Source of the DNA: an uncultured bacterium
GTDB taxonomy: Bacteria; Acidobacteriota; Aminicenantia; UBA2199
Length of the DNA: 64,000 nt
Direction: 5' to 3'
Assembly (NCBI GenBank): GCA_965371805.1
Contig: CBDUZW010000007.1
Location: 56,119 to 120,118 of the forward strand
Part shown: positions 49,328 to 62,659 of the stretch, in pieces
How positions within the stretch are numbered: the stretch's first letter is position 1
How the letters are laid out: every line of letters begins with the position of its first letter
Notes under the pieces: model-generated
Seen by the model: the letters and a program-made list of their open reading frames with translations, nothing else
Told to the model about the DNA's origin: nothing
Database searches by the model: none
Position numbers and translations under genes: made by a program

Positions 49328-50131
49328 ATGGACTATCAGGAATATATAAATATATTTAAAACTAAGAATGAATATATTACAAAAACCAGTTCCAAACCAT
49401 CTTTTATTCACAAAATAATCAGAAAGAATAAATTCTGGTTCTATTATAGATTTGCAAGAGTTATAATAAATGGAGCAAATGTCGCAAAAAAAGGACTTTA
49501 TGATAAAGCTGCATGGATAGTAAATTCTCTAAATAATGTTATGCTGATTGAGCAGAGTGGAGGAGAATTTCATATTGAAGGTATGGAAAATCTTAGAGAA
49601 GATACTGACAAAGGAATGGTTATAGTTGCAAATCATATGAGTACACTTGAGACAGTTGTTTTACCTTCAATCATCCAGACAAATAGAAATGTTACCTTCG
49701 TTGTAAAAGATACTCTTGTAAAGAATAATACCTTTGGTTATATCATGAGAGCTACAGACCCGATAGTTGTCGGAAGAAAAAGCGCAAGAGAAGATCTTGA
49801 GCATGTATTAAAAAGTGGAGAGGAAAAATTAAGAAAAGGAATATCTTTAATCATTTTTCCTCAAAGTACAAGAGACTCAGTTTTTGATCCAAAAGGTTTT
49901 AATACTCTTGGTATAAAGCTTGCAAAACGTGCAAATGTTAAAGTTATTCCATTGGCAATAAAAACAGACTTTTGGGGAAATGGAAAATTTATAAAGGAAA
50001 TCGGAAAAATAGATCCAAAAAAAAAAATATATTTAACCTTTGACAAGCCTATGGGGATAACAGGAAATGGTAAGGAAGAACATAAAAAAATCGTTGATTT
50101 TATAAGTCAAAAACAGGAAGAGTGGAAATAG
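49328..50131 (+). CDS. Lysophospholipid (1-acyl-sn-glycerol-3-phosphate) acyltransferase family protein
   Basis: …VANHMSTLETVV (HX4D/E-like motif) and …FPQSTRD block. Size is 267 aa. It lies 3 nt after queF. Confidence 0.7.
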   Translation: MDYQEYINIFKTKNEYITKTSSKPSFIHKIIRKNKFWFYYRFARVIINGANVAKKGLYDKAAWIVNSLNNVMLIEQSGGEFHIEGMENLREDTDKGMVIVANHMSTLETVVLPSIIQTNRNVTFVVKDTLVKNNTFGYIMRATDPIVVGRKSAREDLEHVLKSGEEKLRKGISLIIFPQSTRDSVFDPKGFNTLGIKLAKRANVKVIPLAIKTDFWGNGKFIKEIGKIDPKKKIYLTFDKPMGITGNGKEEHKKIVDFISQKQEEWK

Positions 50132-50589: not shown

Positions 50590-50860
50590 GTGTCAGAAGG
50601 TTTTATAAAAAAGTAATAACTATGTCACGGATTTTTGTAAAGTTTTATGGCGCAGAAGGTTTGTGCTTATCGATTCAAAATTTGAAAGTTCAAGCTAAAA
50701 CATCAAATATTCAAATTTGGAAGATGAGAAGTGCGAAAATGCTGTGCCAGAAATTTTTCAAAAAACCACAGGCATACTAATAAGTATGTCGCGGATTTTT
50801 TGGGAACTTTATGGTCAGCAGATTTGTGCTTATCCATTCAAAATTTGAATATTTGATGTT
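50590..50860. repeat. Tandem duplication (~150-160 bp unit, ~1.7 copies) each carrying palindrome TTCAAAATTTGAA
   Basis: 50592-50697 and 50742-50860 align at ~85% identity, for example TATGTCACGGATTTTTG…TTTGTGCTTATCGATTCAAAATTTGAA versus TATGTCGCGGATTTTTTG…TTTGTGCTTATCCATTCAAAATTTGAA. They abut the 3' end of tRNA-Leu. Confidence 0.6.
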
Positions 50861-50862
50861 AA

Positions 50863-50947
50863 TGCCGGAGGAGGGACTTGAACCCTCACAAGGATAAACC
50901 CCGTCGGATTTTGAATCCGGTGCGTCTGCCAATTCCGCCACTCCGGC
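50863..50947 (-). tRNA. tRNA-Leu (anticodon CAA)
   Basis: The reverse complement reads GCCGGAGTGGCGGAATTGGCAGACGCACCGGATTCAAAATCCG…GGTTCAAGTCCCTCCTCCGGCA. It has a 7-bp acceptor stem, anticodon loop UUCAAAA and a long variable arm (type II). No CCA is encoded. Confidence 0.85.
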
Positions 50948-51288
50948 AATAAGTGGTAATTATAGTTCCAATTGAAATATATGTCAATTAGAAAAGTAGT
51001 TGAAAAAAAATTCATTCTATATTTGTAATCGAAATTATAAATTGAAAAGAAAACACTTAAAAACAATGATTAAATGCAAGAATCAAAAAAACAAAACTTC
51101 GTCACCTATCGGCACAAAAGTTACCCGAAGTTTTACTTTTTTATTTATTGTTTTTTATTTTAGATTTTATAGGCAAGTCTATATGTTCGAGCTTTATTTA
51201 AAAATTTCCTTCTTTTGTATTTCACAATCGCTAAGAATTTTAGATAAAATACCAACTCCAATAGTTTCATTTGAATGGAATTTGTTTT

Positions 51289-51326
51289 TGGCCTGACACC
51301 TTTTTCATGACACCTTTTTCAAAACC
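51289..51326 (+). repeat. Direct-repeat motif GCCTGACACCTTTTTCA (tandem 2 copies), left copy
   Basis: GGCCTGACACCTTTTTCATGACACCTTTTTCA occurs here and a third copy lies at 53082-53099. Confidence 0.5.
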
Positions 51327-51821: not shown

Positions 51822-52346
51822 ATGATGTCAATGATGGGATTAATGGGTTTTGCGCCCTTTATTATTTATTTTATTGTACCACTTTTCGCCTTTGCCTATA
51901 TTTTTTTAAAATGGCGCTCATACAGAGACGGATTGCCTCAAGATCCTGAACTTGGAAAAAAAGTTATTCTCTACTATTTTAAGACTATCTCATTTCACCT
52001 GATTCTAATTTCACTCACCCTTATTTTTTCAAACCTTTTAAAAGGGGATTTCAAAGATAATTTTTTATCCGGAATTGGAATCTTGATCGGAAGCTCAATA
52101 ATATATACAATTCACATTTTTATAATAAACAAGATTTTTAATAACACTCAGACTTATTTTGTCTCCAGATTCTATAATGGTTTTAACTTTGTTTTAGTTG
52201 GTCTTATAGGTATGACCGGTATTATCGTTACGACTACTTTACTTGTGAAAGGGAAATTCGTTGATCTTCAGCTGCCAATTTCAGCATTAATTATTTATGG
52301 AACAGCATGGGTTTGGCTGGGATCAACTTTTATCAAGAAAAAGTAA
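51822..52346 (+). CDS. Hypothetical 4-TM membrane protein
   Basis: 174 aa with a good RBS (AGGAGGA). It is flanked by the direct repeats. Confidence 0.5.
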   Translation: MMSMMGLMGFAPFIIYFIVPLFAFAYIFLKWRSYRDGLPQDPELGKKVILYYFKTISFHLILISLTLIFSNLLKGDFKDNFLSGIGILIGSSIIYTIHIFIINKIFNNTQTYFVSRFYNGFNFVLVGLIGMTGIIVTTTLLVKGKFVDLQLPISALIIYGTAWVWLGSTFIKKK

Positions 52347-52362
52347 TATAGGATAAATCAAA

Positions 52363-52860
52363 ATGGATCAGGAAATATTTAATATTCAGCAGGCACATAA
52401 TAGGGAATATTATCATGAGTTATGGAAAAAAGCCAAGGAAGAGAATTATAAAAATAGTTCTGATGAGGAAAAGCTTATCATGGAAATTATGCTTGAACAT
52501 GAGGAGGAGTATTTTATTTTTTTTGAAAATTTAGACTTATTAAAGGAACATGAATTTGATCCGGATGAAGAGGAAAATCCTATTATGCATATTACTATAC
52601 ATCAAATCGTAGAGAATCAGCTTAGAAATAAAGAACCTATTGAGGTTTACCAATTCCTATTGGCAATGAATAAAAAGAAATGTCCTCGACATGAAACCAT
52701 TCATCTTATCTCTCGAATCTTCATCCAAATATTTTTCAAAACATTGAAGTATAAAGTTCCATTTGATAAAAAAAAATATGTTTTTTTATTAAAAAAATAC
52801 AAAACCCGTAAACCTGAAAATATTTTTCAATTAATAGAAAATGATGAAGAAGAAAATTGA
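52363..52860 (+). CDS. Hypothetical acidic cytoplasmic protein (DUF1841-like motif NPxxHxxxHxxVENQL…HExIHxI)
   Basis: 165 aa with an E/D-rich N-terminus. The …NPIMHITIHQIVENQLRNKEPIEV…CPRHETIHLISRIF… segment matches my recollection of a conserved small-protein family. It starts 16 nt after the preceding gene. Confidence 0.45.
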   Translation: MDQEIFNIQQAHNREYYHELWKKAKEENYKNSSDEEKLIMEIMLEHEEEYFIFFENLDLLKEHEFDPDEEENPIMHITIHQIVENQLRNKEPIEVYQFLLAMNKKKCPRHETIHLISRIFIQIFFKTLKYKVPFDKKKYVFLLKKYKTRKPENIFQLIENDEEEN

Positions 52861-53079
52861 TTAAAAAAGTAGTCAATTATGAATCAAAATAGAAATCTAT
52901 TTTGCGAAGATAATATTATTCCCACAAATCTGTACTCAGATATTTTAAACCGGAGTCATTTATGATAGTTGCAATAATTTTACCTTTTAATGGCCCTTTT
53001 AATTTGAACCGGGCCGGAGTTTTACTTTTTTACTTCTTTAATATTTATTAGCTTTCATTGTCTTTAGATGAGCGGGTCA

Positions 53080-53100
53080 TTTTTTGCCTGACACCTTTTT
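53080..53100 (+). repeat. Direct-repeat motif GCCTGACACCTTTTTCA, right copy
   Basis: TTGCCTGACACCTTTTTCAC matches the 51289-51326 repeats. The two flank the 51.8-52.9 kb cassette. Confidence 0.5.
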
Positions 53101-53430
53101 CACTCCGAAAAGCAATTTAATTTGATAGAGAAAACTGTTATTATCAGTCCATCAATATCCAAACAGCCGGAAGCGAATGAATACAGTTCACCCATAGAGA
53201 AGTTTCTTTTTGATTTCTTTATTGAAAACAGGAAATTAAAAATTATGTAAGATTCCGAAGCAATAAATACTGTAAAGAATGCAATTACCTCTGGCAGAAT
53301 CAATATCTCCTCTTTATATTCTTATGCAGTCCGCAAATAGGATACTTTTAAGTGCCAGTCCAGATCTAATTTCAGGGGCTAGTCTTATTGGTTTATTGAC
53401 AATAATTCTATTATTTGTTAAAAATTAGTT

Positions 53431-54417
53431 ATGATAAAAAACAATCAACTTATAATTTATCAGACTGAGGATGGGAAAGTTAAAATTGAAACTCATTTTG
53501 AGAATGAAACCGTTTGGCTAAACATAGAACAAATATCAGAATTATTTCAAAAATCCCGTTCTACAATTAATGAGCATATTCTTAATATCTATAAAGAACA
53601 GGAGCTTGATCAAGCACCTACAATGAGAAAAATCGGAATTTCCGGTTTTTCTACTAAACCTACCAACCATTATAATCTTGATGTGATAATTTCAGTAGGT
53701 TACAGAGTGAAATCTCATAGAGGTGTTCATTTTCGTAAATGGGCAACAGCACTTATTAAAGAGTATTTGATAAAGGGCTTTGCAATGAATGATGAACTGC
53801 TTAAAGAGGCCGGAGGCGGGAATTATTTTGATGAATTACTGGCCAGAATACGTGATATCCGTTCATCTGAAAAAGTGTTCTGGCGTAAGGTTTTAGACAT
53901 TTATGCCACTAGTATTGATTATGATGCAGATACAGAACAATCTGTAATGGTTTTTAAAACCATACAAAACAAAATGCATTGGGCAGCTCATGGTGAAACA
54001 GCTGCTGAAACAGTTTATAAGAGGGTTGATTCTTCAAAAGAGCATCTAGGATTAACTAACTTTAACGGTGAAATACCAACAAAAAATGAGGCTGAAATCG
54101 CTAAGAATTACCTTTTAAAAGATGAATTAGATATATTAAACAGAATGGTAACAGCATTTCTGGAAATTGGAGAAATTCAGGCATTAGACCGTAAACCTAT
54201 GTACATGAAAGATTGGATTAAGCAGCTTGATACATTCCTGCAAATGACAAATAAAAATATTTTAAAAAATTCGGGTACTATCAGCCATAAAAAGGCTGTA
54301 GAAAAAGCTCACAGAGAATACGAAGTTTATAAAGAAAAAACAAAGAATAGGATTACGCAGATTGAAAAGGATTTTATGAAACAAATTGAGAAGAAAACGA
54401 AAGGTCTGAAAAATTGA
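53431..54417 (+). CDS. RhuM-family virulence/mobile-element-associated protein
   Basis: The N-terminal …IIYQTEDGKVKIETHFENETVWLNIEQISELFQKSRSTINEHI… resembles the RhuM family signature. Size is 328 aa. Confidence 0.7.
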   Translation: MIKNNQLIIYQTEDGKVKIETHFENETVWLNIEQISELFQKSRSTINEHILNIYKEQELDQAPTMRKIGISGFSTKPTNHYNLDVIISVGYRVKSHRGVHFRKWATALIKEYLIKGFAMNDELLKEAGGGNYFDELLARIRDIRSSEKVFWRKVLDIYATSIDYDADTEQSVMVFKTIQNKMHWAAHGETAAETVYKRVDSSKEHLGLTNFNGEIPTKNEAEIAKNYLLKDELDILNRMVTAFLEIGEIQALDRKPMYMKDWIKQLDTFLQMTNKNILKNSGTISHKKAVEKAHREYEVYKEKTKNRITQIEKDFMKQIEKKTKGLKN

Positions 54418-54483
54418 AGTTTACAGAAGAAAAATTTAAATAAATTCTGTCTGTCCCCTTTCTCTTAGTTTTTTCAAATATAC

Positions 54484-55296
54484 TTATTTAACAGGGACAA
54501 ATCTCCATGAAACAATACCGCCTTTTTCATTTTTATATGACCCTTTAAGCGTATAGCCGGATGATGGGAGGGCAATCTCGAAGGCTTCAGCTGCGATACT
54601 TTCCCTGGAGGGATTTCTTACCGCTTCAGGGAACATCTCTTTAAGGAGTTCAGGAAAAGCTATTTTCCTATTATGATCCTCCATTTTATTTATTAATGCC
54701 TTTGTAATTTTCAGCCTTGAGTACGATTCTACACCCACTCCGGATTCACCCAGTTCTACATCATCAATACCCGGAGTGATTCTCAATGAATATGTCCCCC
54801 TGCTGTAATTGAACTGGAGATTATTTATATAATGTTCCGGCTCGATCTTTTCACTTCCTTTTCCGTCCGTCATGTACACTATTACCGCCTCTCCCAATTT
54901 TGAAATGTTTAGAATTGAAACGTTATATTTTACTTTTCCCTGCCCTACAAATTTATCTTCCCATCCTACTAATTCACCTTCCTCCCCTTCCAATTTACTT
55001 TCACTTCTTTTTAAGGGTCTAAAGGTCACCGTCCCGTCTATTCTGACCGTCTCAACTGTTTTACCGTATAATCCCTTTAATTTTAAAAAGGTGACGCTGT
55101 TATCGTAAAAACTTTCATTGAGATCAAGTTTATAGTGAATCTCACCTTTCCATTTTTTAATACTTTTAAATCTCGCCTTTCCTCTCTGTTGTGGAGGATT
55201 TGATCCTTCCGCTATTTCGAATAGGAGAAAAAATGAGCCAATAAGAAACATAATAAACAGGTTCCGGGAAAACAAAATTTTTTTTTTTTTAACCAT
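54484..55296 (-). CDS. Hypothetical secreted protein (GC-rich island)
   Basis: Has a signal peptide. Size is 270 aa. Its GC content is much higher than the window baseline. Confidence 0.45.
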   Translation of the reverse strand: MVKKKKILFSRNLFIMFLIGSFFLLFEIAEGSNPPQQRGKARFKSIKKWKGEIHYKLDLNESFYDNSVTFLKLKGLYGKTVETVRIDGTVTFRPLKRSESKLEGEEGELVGWEDKFVGQGKVKYNVSILNISKLGEAVIVYMTDGKGSEKIEPEHYINNLQFNYSRGTYSLRITPGIDDVELGESGVGVESYSRLKITKALINKMEDHNRKIAFPELLKEMFPEAVRNPSRESIAAEAFEIALPSSGYTLKGSYKNEKGGIVSWRFVPVK

Positions 55297-55506
55297 GACC
55301 CTTCCTCCAAATTATTATTAAATATAACACTCCTTTCCTAAAAGGAGAATCTCTTTATTGTAATAAAACATTCTAGTATAAAAAACTTATTTTCTCAGCC
55401 AGATTAAGTGGAAATTCTTCAGTCTTTGATCTGCACTTTGTACATTGCAATGGGTAAACTTTATAAACTTTGTAAATTAGATGCTGGTTGATTACGGAGA
55501 AAGGGA

Positions 55507-56019
55507 TTAGCGAAGTTTTCCAACATCATCCAGGCGGATTAGATGGAAGGTTTTTCCATCCCAATGTGCTGCTACTTCTGCACCTTTATGTGCAAGAGCA
55601 TAGCATGCACCAGCATCTACACCAGCTCTCTTAGCAAATCTAATTCCACGCTTTGGAAAAATCTCGAGCAAAGGTCCGAACTTGCCTTTCTCAGAAAGAA
55701 TTGCAATACCAGCTGCTGAGATCTCTTTCTTTTTCTGGAACTTGGCCAGGGCAGTCATCATCTTTTCCGGAGTTAAATTGGGAAAGGGTTGCATGAATGC
55801 AAGTGCCTTTTTGTAGTTCTTTGCATCCAATGAAGTATTGAGATCATGTAGAATGGATACTATGGCTTCTTTAGTAGGCTTAACAGACTCTCCGTCGGTC
55901 TTTGAAACTGTTGAATCCCAAGACGACTCACATCCACACACCCCAAGAAGCAAGGTTAATGTTAAAACTACAAAACTGACAGTATAAACGTTTTTTGATA
56001 AATTTCTTAGAAAATCCAT
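55507..56019 (-). CDS. Hypothetical lipoprotein (GC-rich island)
   Basis: Lipobox-like LLLGVCGCESS. Size is 170 aa. About 48% GC. Confidence 0.45.
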   Translation of the reverse strand: MDFLRNLSKNVYTVSFVVLTLTLLLGVCGCESSWDSTVSKTDGESVKPTKEAIVSILHDLNTSLDAKNYKKALAFMQPFPNLTPEKMMTALAKFQKKKEISAAGIAILSEKGKFGPLLEIFPKRGIRFAKRAGVDAGACYALAHKGAEVAAHWDGKTFHLIRLDDVGKLR

Positions 56020-56223
56020 AATTTGTCATACCTCCAATTTTTTCATATTAAAAAGTTACTACAAAAAAAATTTTATTGCAAATCCATTTTATTAAAACTC
56101 ATTTGAAATAAATTAAATAATAGGCTTATTTTTATTGACTTTATTTATTTATTTTTTTAGAATGCAGATATTATGTATCAGCAATGCCGGAATGATATGA
56201 AGGTATTCCCTGGAGGATAAATC

Positions 56224-58800
56224 ATGAAGCCTAAGAACATTAAGAGAATACTATTTATTATTTCTGTGTTTTTGATTGGGACAGTGATTCTGCTGCCTGT
56301 CAAGAATAGAAAACTCAGTCAAACTGAATTGGCAGAACTTCGTGATGCCAAAACAGTTCAGGTTATTATTGAACCTGTTACGGGAAATACAAAGAAGGTG
56401 AAATTTCCAATTAGAGAGACAATCAAAAAAATGCTGATCCCGGCAGGATTAAAATATACCGCTGCTAATGGGGCTATGGTTTTTAAGATAAAGTTAACTG
56501 CTCGTGCTCTCTCTCGTAATTATTCAAGATTCGGGTTTGGAGGTGGGCGAAAAGGGTATACAGGTGCCAGTATATCTGGGAATATTATCGTTTTAAAAGG
56601 AATGAAACAGTTTTTCAAATACAATTTTTCAGGCAGTGTCGGCACCTCTTATTCGATCTTATCAGGTTCTTATAAGTATCCCTCATCTGCTCCCTTTTCT
56701 AAAGCTTTTTTGAAATCAACCTTTCAAAATAAAGTCATGGATATCATAATAAATATTCAGGAGAAACAAATCCCTTTGCTGATCCGGTATTTTAAAAGTT
56801 CTAATTTCCGAATCCGTAAAGCTGCCATTGAAAAGATGTCCTTAACTAAAGATACTGCTGTATTGAGTTTTATATATCTTGCTTTAAAGGATAAAACAAA
56901 TGAAGTTAGGACTTCAGCAGCTAAGGCACTTGGACGATTTGCTGATCCCGAAAGTTTAAAACCACTCTTATCCATATTGGACGATAAGAGTAAAGCAGTC
57001 AGAACTGCAGTTCGCAGTGCCCTATTTAAAATAGACAGGAATTGGCGGAATTTGGAAGCCTGTAAAAAATTGGTACCTGTCTGGATTATTGCTCTGAAAG
57101 ACAAAAGCAGCCTAATCGTTGCTGGTGCCGTTGATGCTTTGAACGAAATTTCTGATCAAAGGGTTGTAAAGCCATTAATTATTGCCTTAATGAACAATTA
57201 CTCAACCAGAAAGAAAATTATAAAAGTCCTGAATAAAAAATACTCAGGTTGGAGAAGTGGACCTGAAGCTACAGAGGCGATATCTGTTTTTTTATTAGTC
57301 TTGAAAGGCCCGGATAAAAAAAAGAAAAACAATGCTATACAGGCGCTGGGTGAATTGGGCGGACCGATTGTTCAACAGCAACTTATAAAAACTGCAACAA
57401 GTGATCCTGTTTCATCGATAAGGGGCAGTGCACTCTCAATCTTATCAAAAAAATATCCTGACTGGGGAAAATCGAAAGAGGCAGTTAAAAATGTTCCCTC
57501 CCTGATAAAAGATCTGAGAAAACCCTCTTCAGATCTCAGATACCAGTCAGTTAAAGCCCTTGACGTGATTAATGATCCGCGCGCCATCCCCTCCCTGATC
57601 AGACTTATAAAGGATAAAAACTCCAGAGTCAGTAGTGCCGCATTAAATGCACTGAAAGATATCGATGATCCCCGTATTATCAAAACACTTGCCCAAATGT
57701 TAAAGAGTAATAATTATAGAATCAGAGAAAAGGCAATTTCAGCATTAATGAAACGGGATGATCCGAAGGCAGTTGATTTGCTGATCGGGGCGGCAAAAGA
57801 CAGAAAATATTCAATCAGGATAAAGGCCATAAATGGGCTGGTTAAAAAGGAGGATTCCCGTATAAACAAAATTCTCCTGGATGCATTAAAAGACACTAAT
57901 TATAAGATCAAAACGGCTGCGATTTCTGCCCTGGGTAAAAGAAAGGAGACCCTGGCCATTAAGCCCCTGCTAAAACTTCTTAAGGATAAGAATGCAAGAT
58001 TGAGGAATTCTGCCAGTTATGCCCTGAAAGGAATGGTTGATCTCTGTACGGTTGATACCCTTTTAGAATTGACAAAAAGTGACAGTTCAAGTTTAAAACT
58101 TTCTGCGTTAACTGCACTTGGCAAATATGACAGCCCCAAAGTTATTGAACTGCTAATTAAATCTATGAAAGATAAGAATTCCAATATCAGGCTAAAGGCG
58201 GTTGGGGCACTGGGAAAAATAGATAATGAGCGAACTGTAAAACCTCTTATAGCAGCACTTCAGGACAAATACTATAAGGTCAGAGAAGTTGCTGTAAAAA
58301 GCCTTGGAAAAAGAAAAGAAGTCCGGGCTGCAGCTGCTCTTTTAATGCTTTTAAAAAGTAAAAAAACAGTAGTGAAAAAATCCAGGTACTATAAAAAACG
58401 CAGGGTGACAACTCACCGTTCAAAAATTAGGAATACTGTTTTCAATGCATTGGAGAATATGGCTGAAGATCTACCGGCAAAACTTCTTTTGGATCAAATT
58501 AGAGAGAATAATTATAATATGAAGTACAAATTAAAAAAATTAGCCATAAAAACAGAGGATCCGGAGGCTGCAAACATCTATATCACTGCTTTGAAGGATG
58601 ATAATAGATCAGTTGTCCAGGTTCTAATCGAAATACTTGGAAGCCGCAAAGAACGTAAAGCAATAGAACCGCTTATCGAAAAACTGAAAAGTAGCGACAG
58701 AGGCATAAAAAAAAGTGCCTCTTATGCATTAAAATCTATCACTGGTAAAAATTACAAAACAAAATACAAGAAATGGAAAAAATGGTGGAAAAAAAAATAG
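56224..58800 (+). CDS. Membrane-anchored PBS-lyase-type HEAT-repeat protein with Lys/Trp-rich C-terminal tail
   Basis: N-terminal TM anchor. About 17 repeats fit the pattern …DPRAIPxLIxLLKDKNxxVRxxAxxALGK…. The C-terminus is …YKKWKKWWKKK. Size is 858 aa. Confidence 0.8.
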   Translation: MKPKNIKRILFIISVFLIGTVILLPVKNRKLSQTELAELRDAKTVQVIIEPVTGNTKKVKFPIRETIKKMLIPAGLKYTAANGAMVFKIKLTARALSRNYSRFGFGGGRKGYTGASISGNIIVLKGMKQFFKYNFSGSVGTSYSILSGSYKYPSSAPFSKAFLKSTFQNKVMDIIINIQEKQIPLLIRYFKSSNFRIRKAAIEKMSLTKDTAVLSFIYLALKDKTNEVRTSAAKALGRFADPESLKPLLSILDDKSKAVRTAVRSALFKIDRNWRNLEACKKLVPVWIIALKDKSSLIVAGAVDALNEISDQRVVKPLIIALMNNYSTRKKIIKVLNKKYSGWRSGPEATEAISVFLLVLKGPDKKKKNNAIQALGELGGPIVQQQLIKTATSDPVSSIRGSALSILSKKYPDWGKSKEAVKNVPSLIKDLRKPSSDLRYQSVKALDVINDPRAIPSLIRLIKDKNSRVSSAALNALKDIDDPRIIKTLAQMLKSNNYRIREKAISALMKRDDPKAVDLLIGAAKDRKYSIRIKAINGLVKKEDSRINKILLDALKDTNYKIKTAAISALGKRKETLAIKPLLKLLKDKNARLRNSASYALKGMVDLCTVDTLLELTKSDSSSLKLSALTALGKYDSPKVIELLIKSMKDKNSNIRLKAVGALGKIDNERTVKPLIAALQDKYYKVREVAVKSLGKRKEVRAAAALLMLLKSKKTVVKKSRYYKKRRVTTHRSKIRNTVFNALENMAEDLPAKLLLDQIRENNYNMKYKLKKLAIKTEDPEAANIYITALKDDNRSVVQVLIEILGSRKERKAIEPLIEKLKSSDRGIKKSASYALKSITGKNYKTKYKKWKKWWKKK

Positions 58801-58886
58801 ATCTTAAAATTCTATTTTGTAATTTAAACCAAGCAATTCCTGTTTATCACAAAAATGATAAAATAACAAAAAGAGCTAATGGATCA

Positions 58887-59789
58887 TTATTTCTCCCAGA
58901 CAATTCGAAATCCTAAACCGCTATCATTATAATTAACTCCATGACCGCCACGAACTGTAGTTCTTACTGTTTTGGGACCGCAATACCAGCCTCCACCCCT
59001 GAATGTATTTCCGTTTCCGGTTAATGGACCTTTTGGATTTACCTTTTCAGACTTTAAATAATAGTCCTTCTGATATTGATCACGACACCATTCCCACACA
59101 TTTCCAGCCATATCCATTACATTATAAATTGAGGCACCGGCAGGATAGGTTCCAACTGGTGAAGTATACCCAAATCCATCATCTATAGATTTATCACCCC
59201 AACCTTTTATTTTCATATTAACATCTTCACAATTCAATTTATCTCCTGACAATTTACTGTTTCCCCAGGGATATGTTCGGCCATCAGTTCCCCGGGCTGC
59301 TTTTTCCCATTGAGCTTCAGTAGGAAGATATATCTTTTTCCCGGTTTTTTTAGATAACCATTTACAAAACATCTTGGCATCACCGGAGGTAATTAAAACG
59401 ACCGGATGACTGTCTTTCTGCAGAAAACCGGGGTTTTTCCAGTTTGCTGTCTTAACATTTGTCCATTTCCCATTAACCAGAAGAGAGGCGCTTCCTTTTT
59501 TTTCAACTTCGGTTATATATTTCGCCTCCTTAACGAATTTTTTAAACTGACCAACTGTTATTTCATGTTTTGAAATAGAATATGTATCAAGTATAACATC
59601 ATGCACTGGACCTTCATTCTTCCACCTGTTTTTTACATTGGAACCCATTTCGAATTTTCCTGCAGGAATTTTCACCCAGTCAATTTGTAAGACCTTTTTA
59701 TCGAATTGCATCTCTTTTGAATCCAGAGCAAATTGAATCTGGACAAATAAAACCATGATCAGTACTAATAAAATTGCTTTTGTTCTCAT
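58887..59789 (-). CDS. Secreted FGE-sulfatase-domain (SUMF1/formylglycine-generating-enzyme family) protein
   Basis: Has a signal peptide and the motifs …GPVHDVILDTYSISKHEITVGQF…, …GNVWEWC… and …RGGGW…. Size is 300 aa. Confidence 0.8.
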   Translation of the reverse strand: MRTKAILLVLIMVLFVQIQFALDSKEMQFDKKVLQIDWVKIPAGKFEMGSNVKNRWKNEGPVHDVILDTYSISKHEITVGQFKKFVKEAKYITEVEKKGSASLLVNGKWTNVKTANWKNPGFLQKDSHPVVLITSGDAKMFCKWLSKKTGKKIYLPTEAQWEKAARGTDGRTYPWGNSKLSGDKLNCEDVNMKIKGWGDKSIDDGFGYTSPVGTYPAGASIYNVMDMAGNVWEWCRDQYQKDYYLKSEKVNPKGPLTGNGNTFRGGGWYCGPKTVRTTVRGGHGVNYNDSGLGFRIVWEK

Positions 59790-60208
59790 AACTTCTCCTT
59801 TTTTATTTAATATATCTAAGATAATTATTTAATCATCTTTTCATACCTCAAACAATAGGTAATTTTTCTCATTTTCAAAAATTTAAAACTCTATTTAGAT
59901 GACAAATGTAACGAAAGTGCTATTTCAGATTTATTTTATCGAGTGAAACAAAAAATAGATTTTTTCACTTCTCCTCCTCAGGGCTTTAATACTAATATAG
60001 AAATTTTTAAGTTAAAACATCTAAAGTCCTTCATACAAAAGGCATTCGCTTGTTATTTTATTTCATTGAATTTTTATTACAAGTATATTTTACTAAATTT
60101 CATTAACCTATTAAAAAATCAGCTTCTTTAATATATGTATTAGTACGGTTATAAAAAATAAATGGGGCTCTGATAATCTAAAATTTGAAACATTTAAACA
60201 TTTGCAAA

Positions 60209-62404
60209 TTATTGATCTTTATCAAATAGATCACTTACTTCAGCTAAAGTTAAAGTATTCTTATATACTTTTATCTCATCAATATAACCCACAAATCTTG
60301 AACTTCCATTTCGGTATGATCCGAAATTAAAGTCTCCATTATTAACCGTATTTGAAGATGCCCTCAATGTAGCCCTTATAGAAGTAATTAATGGGTCTGT
60401 AACAGAGCTGGATAATTCGGTTATATAAATTTTAACCCTTGATGCAGGTATAGTCGTATTCCCCGTAATACCGCTTCCATCATATGTAAGGGCTACATGG
60501 TACCATCTATTTGTGAGTATTTCAGTATTATTCAATACATGAATTCTCCTACCGTTATTATTCCCATTTTGCCTCATGGTAAAATTGACTGCAAAATTAT
60601 TACTACCCACTTCCTTAACATCTAAAAACCAACCTCGACCATTATTTCCATTTGAAATTTTAGATATTAGCGTATATTCTCTGTTGGTATTAATAGAAGG
60701 CATTTTAAACCAGAGGGAGATTGAAAACTGATCTGTTGGCTCAAAATCAAAATCATCTCCAAATTCTACATATCCGTTATTGCCCCCATCGCAGTAAATG
60801 GCCTTTCCCCGGATATTATTAGTATCCCATAAACGGTCAATATTATTCATATTTACCAGTGTACCATTTATTTCCGGAGCATAATTTAGAAAACCGGATC
60901 CATACACAGTGGGACCATCCCCCTCTTCAAAGGACCACCAGACAAATTCACCAGTGGCAACCGGGGGTATTTCATGAACCAGAAGATGATGAAAACTTGT
61001 ATAGTGGTTTCCATCCCAGCTTCTCAAACCCGGCATTCCGTCTGTAAATGCGTTATCTGTAAAATTAAATCTCTCTATACCGTCAACCTTAATAATATGC
61101 CTTAATCCCGTAACAGTTATTGAAATCTGATGAGATGACTCAAAAACATCAGGGAATTCTGCAAGACTCATAATACGAGTTTGAAATGGAGCTTGTTCCT
61201 CTCCGCTATAAACTCTTCTAACGACAAAAGCAACTCTTCCTCCACTGGTAAGCCCCGGATCATATTGAAAACAATATCCGGAAATTAGTTCCTGTCCATC
61301 ACTTCTATAGTAGATGCCATAACCTCTCCCCTGATGTAAGGTTGCATTTACCTCCAGTCTGTAATCTTCCCAGTCGGCTCTACCAAAAGCAGCTCTATGC
61401 TCTCCATCGCCTTCTGCCCAGAAATTTCCATTATTGTCAGAAGCCCATGTTGCTCCTGGAATAATTGAGTTTATAGGTGAATATGAAGCTGAATCGGGAT
61501 CTGGTTCATCAGTACTATAGAAGGTTCTTTCAAAAAAAGGAGCATCAGGTGTAGTTGAGTCTCCATAAAAATTGACATTAAAAGGAGATCCCCCATTGAG
61601 GCTGGCAATTTTATGATATTCGTTATCAGCGGTAGCGAAATATCTATGGCCCACAGGGATTTTAATACCAGGCGCAGGAGTCTGGGTTCCATATACACCC
61701 AATGCTGTTGTTATAGTTGTAGTAAAAATGGTTCCAGTTCCATCAGGATAGTGTATATTTAAATCTTCATTATCATATGTTGTTATAACATCCCTGCTAT
61801 TTTTGTATTTAAACTCACCTTGAACATATGTCCATACTTCATTTTCTTTGATTTTTAATTCATCGATATCATCATCATTTGGATTTAAGCGGTCATAGAT
61901 ACCATCCTCTCCCCCACTGGCTATAGTTACAGGCCAGGCAATAGATGCCAGAGTACCGATAGGATTGCCATTATTATCATGGTAAAAAAAAGGATTCCCC
62001 CATGCATCAAGAGTGGCAACATAAGCTCCATTATTCTGATTGTCTTTCAGATAGGGACCTCGCCACCCAAACCATACATTATTTTGCTTAATAAATGAAG
62101 GATATGCTCCCTGTTCAAAAAGATCTATCAGACTTGCAGGCAGTACACCAAGATCTCCAATAAAGCCAAAGGAACTTCTAACTTTATTAATCAAAATATC
62201 TGGATTCCCAACAATCACATTCTTGAGATTATGGATTTTTTTAGTAGTAATATTTATTCTATTTACAGGTACTTTTTGTAAAAACAGGGGAATCGCAATC
62301 GTTACTGCAACTGTAATAACCAGGACAATAAGCATTACAGCAATGGCAGCAATTCCAGAATTTTTTTGTTTTTTTTCTTTGTTATTTCTCATCCTAACCC
62401 ACAT
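60209..62404 (-). CDS. GspG-like pseudopilin domain fused to large C-terminal region with LamG (concanavalin-like lectin) domain
   Basis: N-terminal hydrophobic anchor KNSGIAAIAVMLIVLVITVAVTIAIP. A GspG-core-like segment follows (WRGPYLKDN…LDAWGNPFFYHDNNGNP…SGGEDGIYD, compare the PulG …DPWG..Y…SLGPDG motif). The C-terminus carries a LamG-like domain (…NNGYVEFGDDFDF…FSISLWFK…). Size is 731 aa. The start could be at MRNNKE. Confidence 0.6.
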   Translation of the reverse strand: MWVRMRNNKEKKQKNSGIAAIAVMLIVLVITVAVTIAIPLFLQKVPVNRINITTKKIHNLKNVIVGNPDILINKVRSSFGFIGDLGVLPASLIDLFEQGAYPSFIKQNNVWFGWRGPYLKDNQNNGAYVATLDAWGNPFFYHDNNGNPIGTLASIAWPVTIASGGEDGIYDRLNPNDDDIDELKIKENEVWTYVQGEFKYKNSRDVITTYDNEDLNIHYPDGTGTIFTTTITTALGVYGTQTPAPGIKIPVGHRYFATADNEYHKIASLNGGSPFNVNFYGDSTTPDAPFFERTFYSTDEPDPDSASYSPINSIIPGATWASDNNGNFWAEGDGEHRAAFGRADWEDYRLEVNATLHQGRGYGIYYRSDGQELISGYCFQYDPGLTSGGRVAFVVRRVYSGEEQAPFQTRIMSLAEFPDVFESSHQISITVTGLRHIIKVDGIERFNFTDNAFTDGMPGLRSWDGNHYTSFHHLLVHEIPPVATGEFVWWSFEEGDGPTVYGSGFLNYAPEINGTLVNMNNIDRLWDTNNIRGKAIYCDGGNNGYVEFGDDFDFEPTDQFSISLWFKMPSINTNREYTLISKISNGNNGRGWFLDVKEVGSNNFAVNFTMRQNGNNNGRRIHVLNNTEILTNRWYHVALTYDGSGITGNTTIPASRVKIYITELSSSVTDPLITSIRATLRASSNTVNNGDFNFGSYRNGSSRFVGYIDEIKVYKNTLTLAEVSDLFDKDQ

Positions 62405-62659
62405 GATGTTAATATGAAGTTTGACTATTATTATTGTTCATAGTCATTTTATCTTCATAAATTTGATTCTAAATGAATGAAATTGAGAAGTCAACACCTG
62501 TTTAAATGATTTTTACTTTTTTAAGGATCAACTGATAAAAAAACAGGTGATTTTAATAATTTACGCTACTTCCAGAATTCCGCTATTGACAAAAGGTAAG
62601 CTATAAATTATAACTATATTTAATTAAAAAAAAAATTATTGTTTTGGAGGATTTACTAT

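Follow-up and report, generated by a model that had tools for sequence, protein, structure and literature searches.

Five adjacent genes in a stretch that differs from its surroundings in base composition may have arrived together and may work together, or may share no more than a location. This question is raised by positions 54400-62500 (the block) of a 64-kb stretch of contig CBDUZW010000007.1 (the window, which is the whole stretch of DNA that was analysed). The block encodes a 270-amino-acid (aa) protein, a 170-aa predicted lipoprotein, an 858-aa HEAT-repeat protein, a 300-aa protein of the FGE fold and a 731-aa fusion of a pseudopilin to LamG. A first interpretation made from the letters alone (the sequence-only reading) had taken it to be a horizontally acquired island next to a tRNA-Leu gene, encoding a surface-display or adhesion system. 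The analysis described here favours, with a probability of roughly 60%, a mosaic accessory region and not a single transferred functional module. Each of the gene families was shown to occur elsewhere in its own, different neighbourhood, and when the orthologues are viewed in those contexts the apparent five-gene surface module dissolves.

Gene layout and co-occurrence

The inventory of five open reading frames (ORFs) held up on re-examination, as did the domain assignments HEAT_2, FGE-sulfatase and Laminin_G_3 within the block and RhuM beside it (Table 1). In all five proteins hydrophobic 19-mers form a single region, which lies at the N-terminus. This is consistent with the earlier proposal that all five products are exported or membrane-anchored, a prediction made, like that of lipoprotein status, from hydropathy and motifs.

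Table 1 Features of the block and its surroundings in window coordinates; E, expect value
Feature	Positions	Strand	Evidence	Remarks
270-aa protein	54484-55296	-		N-terminal signal or anchor helix; small uncharacterised family
170-aa predicted lipoprotein	55507-56019	-	lipobox-like …LLLGVCGC…	GC 41.1%
858-aa HEAT-repeat protein	56224-58800	+	HEAT_2, E 3.8e-78, 8 stretches; also HEAT and HEAT_PBS	
300-aa FGE-fold (SUMF1/EgtB/PvdO-like) protein	58887-59789	-	PF03781, E 3.8e-58, profile positions 4-255 of 255	
731-aa modular pseudopilin	60209-62404	-	Laminin_G_3, E 5.9e-18 (C-terminal)	Modules: class-III-like signal and alpha1 helix (1-45), GspG-like head (~46-185), beta-sandwich (~186-289), DUF1080/ConA-like (~290-480), LamG (~481-731)
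RhuM-family gene	53431-54417	+	PF13310, E 1e-101	Abuts left edge of block; context only
tRNA-Leu(CAA)	50862-50948	-	ARAGORN; Rfam 55.6 bits	Context only
PlsC-type acyltransferase gene	49328-50131			Flanking gene
acs-like AMP-binding gene	62660 to window end			Flanking gene

The orientation of the block genes is mixed, and they make up at least three transcription units; 419 nt separate the LamG gene from the FGE gene. An identical promoter-like sequence, TTGACT-17-TAGAAT, stands before the HEAT gene (56135-56163, plus strand) and before the LamG gene (62494-62466, minus strand), and these two sites are the best sigma-70-type matches upstream of a gene start in the block. Sigma-70-type sites numbered 41 against 31 ± 6 expected, and in such AT-rich DNA the pair may be a coincidence.

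Related loci were then compared gene by gene. Near the LamG orthologues (five contexts) no HEAT or FGE gene was present. The loci of the HEAT orthologues (L087-L090, three distinct contexts) contained no homologue of the FGE, LamG, 170-aa or 270-aa genes; two of these orthologues have a lipoprotein gene upstream, which is unrelated to the small proteins of the window (hhalign probability <1%). The three loci with homologues of the 270-aa gene (L106, L107 and L108) carried none of the other block genes, and no block gene was found near the FGE-like relatives in 15 metagenome loci (at most 36% identity). The triad of HEAT, FGE and pseudopilin-LamG genes, for which a search had been recommended, was thus not found together in any related locus fetched. 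The five-gene combination appears to be unique to the window locus, which argues against a co-inherited functional system. With at least three transcription units and no co-occurrence in about 26 loci, the proposal that the five genes form one transferred surface-display system is not borne out.

Base composition

The guanine-cytosine (GC) content of the block had been put at 42-48%. Measured as a whole it is 36.0%, compared with 31.3% in the remaining window (+4.6 points; 31.9% for the window overall). The block is nevertheless the GC-richest 8.1-kb stretch of the window: the maximum of 36.0%, from position 53601, is 3.3 standard deviations (SD) above the mean of 31.7% (SD 1.3). The four 60-nt lines cited for the higher figure truly have 41.7-48.3% GC; they are local peaks and not values for the block. 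Lines with at least 42% GC make up 22% of those inside the block and 6% of those outside, and 500-nt windows within the block range from 29% to 42%. The sliding GC and tetranucleotide check, when run within the window, therefore gave a modest rise but not a sharp block-wide jump, and the jump seen in a few lines shrinks to a shift of about 5 points.

The low-GC core against which the block had been contrasted holds only in part, since the flanking acs-like gene has 36.9% GC and two transporter genes of the window reach 37.7% and 38.8%. These values bear on the alternative that the region is native and vertically inherited, the rise in GC reflecting the amino-acid composition and weak codon bias of exported, lowly expressed proteins, as they show that other genes of the window can be as GC-rich as those of the block. 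Tetranucleotide distance points the same way: it peaks at 54-58 kb but is equally high at 60-64 kb, acs included.

Per-gene values were compared for 41 genes, the five of the block and 36 other ORFs of the window, which served as the composition background. The block genes have 37.2-41.1% GC and the other ORFs 32.2 ± 2.5%. The GC content of third codon positions (GC3) is the measure least swayed by protein composition. It is 0.243 ± 0.031 for the window genes and 0.354, 0.333, 0.341, 0.302 and 0.261 for the 270-aa, 170-aa, HEAT, FGE-like and LamG genes, respectively. The four left block genes are therefore 2-3.6 SD over the window mean, whereas the LamG gene is host-like and its GC excess is confined to codon positions 1 and 2 (GC1 and GC2), as a native origin would predict. 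By this measure only the genes for the 270-aa, 170-aa and HEAT proteins clearly stand out, and the FGE-like gene does so weakly. That the top three values among the 41 genes belong to three adjacent genes counts against a wholly native region, and so does the finding that all HEAT orthologues come from genomes of 43-49% GC. The compositional deviation is real but modest and is not uniform across the block; it is consistent with a foreign origin for part of it.

The 270-aa gene provides a further test. Its closest homologue, on a 3632-bp Logan contig (SRR28415870; L106), has 89% DNA identity over window positions 54481-55397 only, that is, over the gene and about 100 bp upstream of it, and the flanks are unrelated. 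On one side the homology stops 3 nt past the stop codon, in the short spacer before RhuM; on the upstream side the contig ends 135 nt past the aligned part. The gene has 37.6% GC here and 37.5% in L106, where the remaining contig has 29.5%. In L107 and L108 its homologues have 35.1% GC on contigs of 40-43%. The gene thus retains its own GC content (35-37.5%) in hosts on either side of it. This stable composition, together with the changing neighbourhoods, suggests that it moves between genomes of different GC content, and it is probably the most recent acquisition of the block. The 89%-identical copy in another neighbourhood counts against a native origin of the whole region, which is considered unlikely but is the likeliest of the alternatives.

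The mosaic reading would be explained as follows. On the left, the genes for the 270-aa, 170-aa and HEAT proteins (and, less clearly, that for the FGE-like protein) would have come in separately from donors of higher GC and would since have been partly ameliorated. By its composition the pilin-LamG gene would be native. It would be a copy, relocated or orphaned, of a gene that stands third in a three-pilin operon of related uncultured diderms (see below).

Several points weigh against this reading, and some of them favour a native region. The organism has no close relative in the databases: in a set of about 15 billion proteins clustered at 90% identity, every window protein tested, BamA included, stands alone as a singleton. 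A species-representative scan with the flanking acyltransferase found no syntenic genome, the best match having 51% identity. The nearest homologues of the HEAT protein (47%) and of the LamG protein (50%) are about as distant as those of this flanking housekeeping-type gene (51%), so that both could have been inherited vertically. The composition background is limited to 64 kb, the assignments of export, anchoring and lipoprotein status come from hydropathy and motifs and not from a dedicated predictor, and the absence of co-occurrence rests on about 26 loci (5 + 3 + 3 + 15) from distant organisms. The lack of mobility genes in the window, described in the next section, also agrees with a native origin.

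The acyltransferase scan itself gave 80 loci, which come from mixed phyla and have 44-53% identity; none shares synteny with the window. The homologues carry Bacteroidales, Desulfosporosinus, Ruminiclostridium, Aminicenantes, Omnitrophota and other labels. As the identity profile is flat and independent of phylum, the family of this PlsC-type enzyme seems to have been widely exchanged.

Chromosomal context

The possibility that the block is a single horizontally transferred island by tRNA-Leu, whose five genes cooperate in a new surface-display or adhesion system, gains something from the observations already given: the block is the highest-GC 8-kb stretch of the window and there is an N-terminal hydrophobic segment on all five products. 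In addition, the RhuM gene and long AT-rich intergenic regions adjoin it, and in an organism without close relatives a lineage-specific system would be hard to see elsewhere. The context of the block was therefore examined for the features of such an island.

The usual insertion site of integrative elements is the 3' end of a tRNA gene. Here the 3' end of tRNA-Leu (50862) points away from the block, toward the VanZ and acyltransferase genes, and 3.5 kb with three genes (encoding a 174-aa membrane protein, a DUF1841 protein and RhuM) separates the tRNA gene from the block. No second copy of the 31-nt 3' segment of the tRNA gene was found in the window with up to three mismatches allowed. Attachment-site (att)-like direct repeats at the block edges did not exceed chance. 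The sole pair (D13; 54376-54398 and 62473-62495) matches at 19 of 23 nt, is AT-rich and is one among 54 such families in 15 kb, which is chance level.

As the sequence-only reading had noted, no integrase is visible. A Pfam scan of all window ORFs of at least 150 aa gave no integrase, recombinase or transposase, and the three longest stop-to-stop fragments (73-98 aa) of the AT-rich intergenic regions contained no integrase remnant. A search of 49-64 kb with Rfam gave no match except the tRNA. The description of the surroundings as a typical island context is therefore not supported: the tRNA 3' end faces away and is not duplicated, and the edge repeats are short, AT-rich and at chance level.

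The block does resemble tRNA-linked genomic islands in being an atypically composed accessory cluster a few kb from a tRNA gene and beside RhuM. It differs from them in having no integrase and no att duplication, in the orientation of the tRNA 3' end, in the small size of its compositional shift and in a cargo that forms no coherent unit. No two of the five families occur together in the related loci, the genes are in mixed orientation with a wide gap between the LamG and FGE genes, and the LamG gene has a host-like GC3. A single cooperating island is therefore very improbable. The block has no mobility machinery, and there is no evidence that its genes function jointly.

RhuM has a PADLOC match to the candidate defence family PDC-S05 (E 1.7e-142), and it has been proposed that RhuM-like proteins are the toxin components of defence loci (PMC3710099). 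The presence of such a gene points to a plastic neighbourhood. A further reading has RhuM as the nucleus of a defence or conflict island, in which the roles of sensor and effector fall to the HEAT protein and the FGE-fold protein. This reading would draw on the PDC-S05 match and on partial matches of the HEAT protein to PADLOC HEAT models, but it is the least credible of the alternatives, as these HEAT matches are at repeat level only (residues 488-646 against a 1972-position model), the FGE, LamG, 170-aa and 270-aa proteins have no PADLOC match, export or anchor signals on all five products are atypical for cytoplasmic defence effectors, and no nuclease, ATPase or restriction-modification genes were found nearby. 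Across PADLOC and PHROG together, the block proteins gave only the repeat-level HEAT matches and a generic FGE-fold PHROG.

The mosaic reading makes the block a fairly ordinary accessory region. Its members belong to known kinds: modular pilins, non-catalytic FGE-fold proteins, HEAT scaffolds and variable chromosomal regions. Only the family of modular pseudopilins, with its operon of three genes, is likely to hold interest for a specialist.

The modular pseudopilin

The 731-aa protein is the sole block product with a readable function. Its N-terminus reads MWVRMRNNKEKKQKNSG / IAAIAVMLIVLVITVAVTIAIPLF, where the stroke separates the leader from the mature part; a charged leader (…KKQKNSG/) is followed by a hydrophobic helix, and the only hydrophobic segment of the protein spans residues 13-47. 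At least 90% of the family have Gly17 in common. A leader that ends in Gly before some 20 hydrophobic residues is what a class III signal is expected to look like, and the protein would be assigned to this class on its sequence. Members of the family have the pattern G/[IV]xx[LI]E and then a hydrophobic helix; the window copy has SG/IAAIA. Mature position +5 is thus Ala in the window protein, compared with Glu in about 26 of about 30 readable N-termini of the family; three members (P0016, P0029 and P0030) have Gly at this position.

A GspG-like W-x-GPYL … D-x-WGNP motif can be read directly in the head, and the profile of the family gives weak matches to the N-termini of geopilins and GspG. 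An AlphaFold2 (AF2) model built from 29 homologues has a mean predicted local distance difference test score (pLDDT) of 85.9. It consists of a helix (16-42), a small alpha/beta head, a beta-sandwich and two jelly-roll modules. With the Laminin_G_3 match and the pilin-type N-terminus, these modules uphold the earlier description of the protein as a pseudopilin-LamG fusion.

When the model was compared with the PDB using Foldseek, the matches included CBM66 (template modelling score 0.78 on the target), laminin LG, the Hc-N domain of clostridial neurotoxins and the carbohydrate-binding module of a GH43 arabinanase. PilC of Streptococcus sanguinis (7oa8) was also matched, with E 1.2e-6. The model therefore points to a pilin moiety with C-terminal concanavalin A (ConA)-like lectin modules, an architecture like that of PilC. 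The statement that the system has no characterised counterpart fails for this protein, which has one in the modular lectin pilin.

PilC, a minor pilin, combines an Ig-like module with a ConA-like lectin module that binds glycans; it is encoded in a three-pilin operon and has been modelled at the pilus tip, and one subunit of the complex lacks Glu5 (PMC9934059). The two proteins share a pilin moiety onto which a beta-sandwich and ConA-like lectin modules are grafted. A three-gene minor-pilin operon is found in relatives of the window protein as it is for PilC, and the loss of Glu5 has its parallel in the PilABC subunit. The differences are also clear. Beyond the fold, no homology between the two can be detected at the sequence level. 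The window protein, which comes from a diderm, carries a GspG-like head and a pair of ConA-like modules. The signal of PilC is G/FTLIE, compared with the family pattern and the window variant given above, and the window protein stands alone, without partner pilins or machinery in 64 kb.

The protein was also compared with the pseudopilins of the type II secretion system (T2SS). It shares with them the N-terminal alpha1 helix, the GspG head motif and the weak GspG profile matches; one homologue (P0006) is labelled 'pseudopilin PulG' by JGI, and the loss of Glu5 parallels the cap protein GspK. It differs in being about five times the size of GspG, and Pfam T2SSG was not above threshold.

There are 32 homologues at 33-50% identity, all from metagenomes or metagenome-assembled genomes (MAGs). 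In all five contexts that were examined (L001-L006, the two contigs L002 and L003 having the same arrangement) the LamG orthologue is the third gene of a compact three-pilin operon. Its first gene encodes a T2SSG-like pilin (about 200 aa, GFTMIE), its second a pilin of some 270 aa (GFT[IML][GL]E) and its third the LamG protein (about 720 aa). The third pilin of the relatives has the non-canonical signal G/[IV]xx[LI]E[LVM]M, and genes 1 and 2 are of the canonical GFT[ML]IE type. Gene 2 matches only the N-terminal 190 aa of the 731-aa protein (E 1e-19 to 1e-25). Gene 2 and this region of gene 3 are thus paralogous, which suggests a duplication of gene 2 as the source of gene 3, with lectin modules accreted afterwards.

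Counterparts of operon genes 1 and 2 were not found in the window by tblastn, and the 64 kb contain no other pilin gene and no prepilin peptidase, ATPase, platform or secretin gene. T2SS genes were absent from the window and from the loci of the relatives. One MAG (GCA_964502145.1; L002 and L009) contains both a 45%-identical LamG orthologue and a 50%-identical copy of the flanking acyltransferase, which is compatible with the LamG family being part of the lineage's own repertoire.

These observations lead to a proposal for how the protein might act. It would be inserted in the inner membrane via its class-III-like N-terminus. From its fold and architecture it could then be built into the tip of a type IV filament or a pseudopilus, as is modelled for PilC, and present its two ConA-like modules for glycan binding. 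The loss of Glu5 would fit a capping position, as in GspK, or less reliance on filament packing. It is possible, but on balance doubtful, that the operon of the relatives encodes an undescribed type IV filament tip-adhesin complex of an uncultured diderm lineage, and that the window holds a stand-alone copy without Glu5 and its two partners, which might serve as a cap supplied in trans or as a filament-independent anchored lectin. This small, metagenome-only family of very large pseudopilins with two lectin modules extends the idea of the modular pilin from S. sanguinis to uncultured diderms.

The other gene products

The FGE-fold protein has an N-terminal signal-like hydrophobic segment and can be aligned over its full length with FGEs of bacterial and human origin (E 1e-30 to 1e-32). 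True FGEs have two copper-binding catalytic cysteines, arranged as C-x4-C in the motif …GGSxxCxxxxCxRYR…. In alignments with 2q17 and 6muj the first Cys is kept (RGGGWYC) but the segment with the second is deleted, RGGGWYCGPK---TVR aligning with RGGSYLCHDSYCNRYR. As one of the two catalytic cysteines is missing, the protein, to judge from its alignment, cannot work as a canonical copper-dependent FGE. The earlier FGE/SUMF1-like assignment is thus correct for the fold but not for a true FGE. No sulfatase domain was found in the window ORFs scanned.

Other members of the fold were considered as candidates. The scores are far under all the NCBIfam equivalog cut-offs (PvdO, GldK, EgtB and SenA), that for PvdO being 111 against a cut-off of 500. 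As a PorK/GldK protein of the type IX secretion system it is equally unsuited, with 104 bits against 350 for TIGR03525, a match to the C-terminal part only and no lipobox Cys. Compared with the FGE/SUMF1 family as a whole (PF03781, with PvdO, PorK/GldK and the C-terminal domain of EgtB as its non-FGE members), the window protein shares the full-length fold and differs in lacking the second catalytic Cys, in its signal-like segment and in having no sulfatase gene in the window. It is most likely an exported binding protein or another non-FGE member of the fold. The closest metagenome relatives have at most 36% identity.

A single hydrophobic anchor lies at the N-terminus of the HEAT-repeat protein, whose N-terminal region (about 190 aa) is conserved and whose C-terminal tail is cationic and aromatic. 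The sequence ends in ...KYKKWKKWWKKK, which confirms the poly-K/W tail noted before. Three full-length orthologues were found, at 40-47% identity, on the contigs L087-L090 (43-49% GC). Identification as NblB, CpcE or CpcF was rejected, as the NCBIfam scores are far under the cut-offs. The protein is best described as a predicted membrane-anchored, generic repeat scaffold.

The 170-aa protein gave no match in the Pfam, NCBIfam, PADLOC and PHROG libraries. Its C-terminal domain of about 125 aa is found in 216 representative clusters at E ≤ 1e-3 and belongs to a widespread uncharacterised family, in which 55 of 114 short members have a lipobox-like motif. Some members are fusions: the domain occurs with MacB_PCD and SecDF_P1_head in one protein, and with TPR_19 (below threshold) in a second. 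Pfam matched nothing in the eight further fusions tested, and the fusions gave no functional lead.

The 270-aa protein likewise had no Pfam, NCBIfam, PADLOC or PHROG match. It has 12 homologues at 52-85% identity. An AF2 model from 13 homologues had a pLDDT of only 42 and was not used for a fold search; this poor model only suggests a beta-rich protein, which is probably secreted. L106 is the only database sequence that is close to anything in the window. Its other genes have no homologue in the window; two of them encode Lys-rich, secreted-looking proteins, one with four WYPGNE repeats.

Neighbouring features

A hairpin element of about 162 nt abuts the 3' end of tRNA-Leu. Its 24-nt terminal inverted repeats (50699-50722 and 50837-50860) are 96% complementary, and the 263-nt stretch that holds it (50600-50862) folds as RNA with -60 kcal/mol (z = -6.0). 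One 73-nt half of the hairpin has a partial direct copy at 50614-50686, which matches 50778-50849. The short direct repeats that the sequence-only reading had placed beside the tRNA gene are those of the hairpin element, within 50614-50860. The element could be of the type of miniature inverted-repeat transposable elements, or it could be a structured 3' trailer or terminator; it had no Rfam match and no further copies in the window.

Repeated intergenic motifs at 51125-51321 and 53014-53102 (CCGRAGTTTTACTTTTTTA, TTTTTKGCCTGACACCTTTTTCA) bracket the gene pair 51822-52860, which encodes the 174-aa membrane protein and the DUF1841 protein. TTTTTKGCCTGACACCTTTTTCA has an overlapping partial (78%) second copy at 51299-51321. 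The arrangement suggests that the gene pair is itself a small inserted or duplicated-boundary unit.

Positions 1-49000 of the window encode BamA, Skp/OmpH, an LpxA-like acyltransferase, DPP-IV and prolyl oligopeptidases, aminopeptidase P, a hybrid-cluster (prismane) protein, a FeoAB fusion, a 1023-aa protein with a phospholipase-B-like domain and the carboxyltransferase, biotin carboxylase and biotin carrier subunits of a biotin-dependent carboxylase. This gene content indicates that the source organism is a diderm and probably a peptide-fermenting anaerobe.

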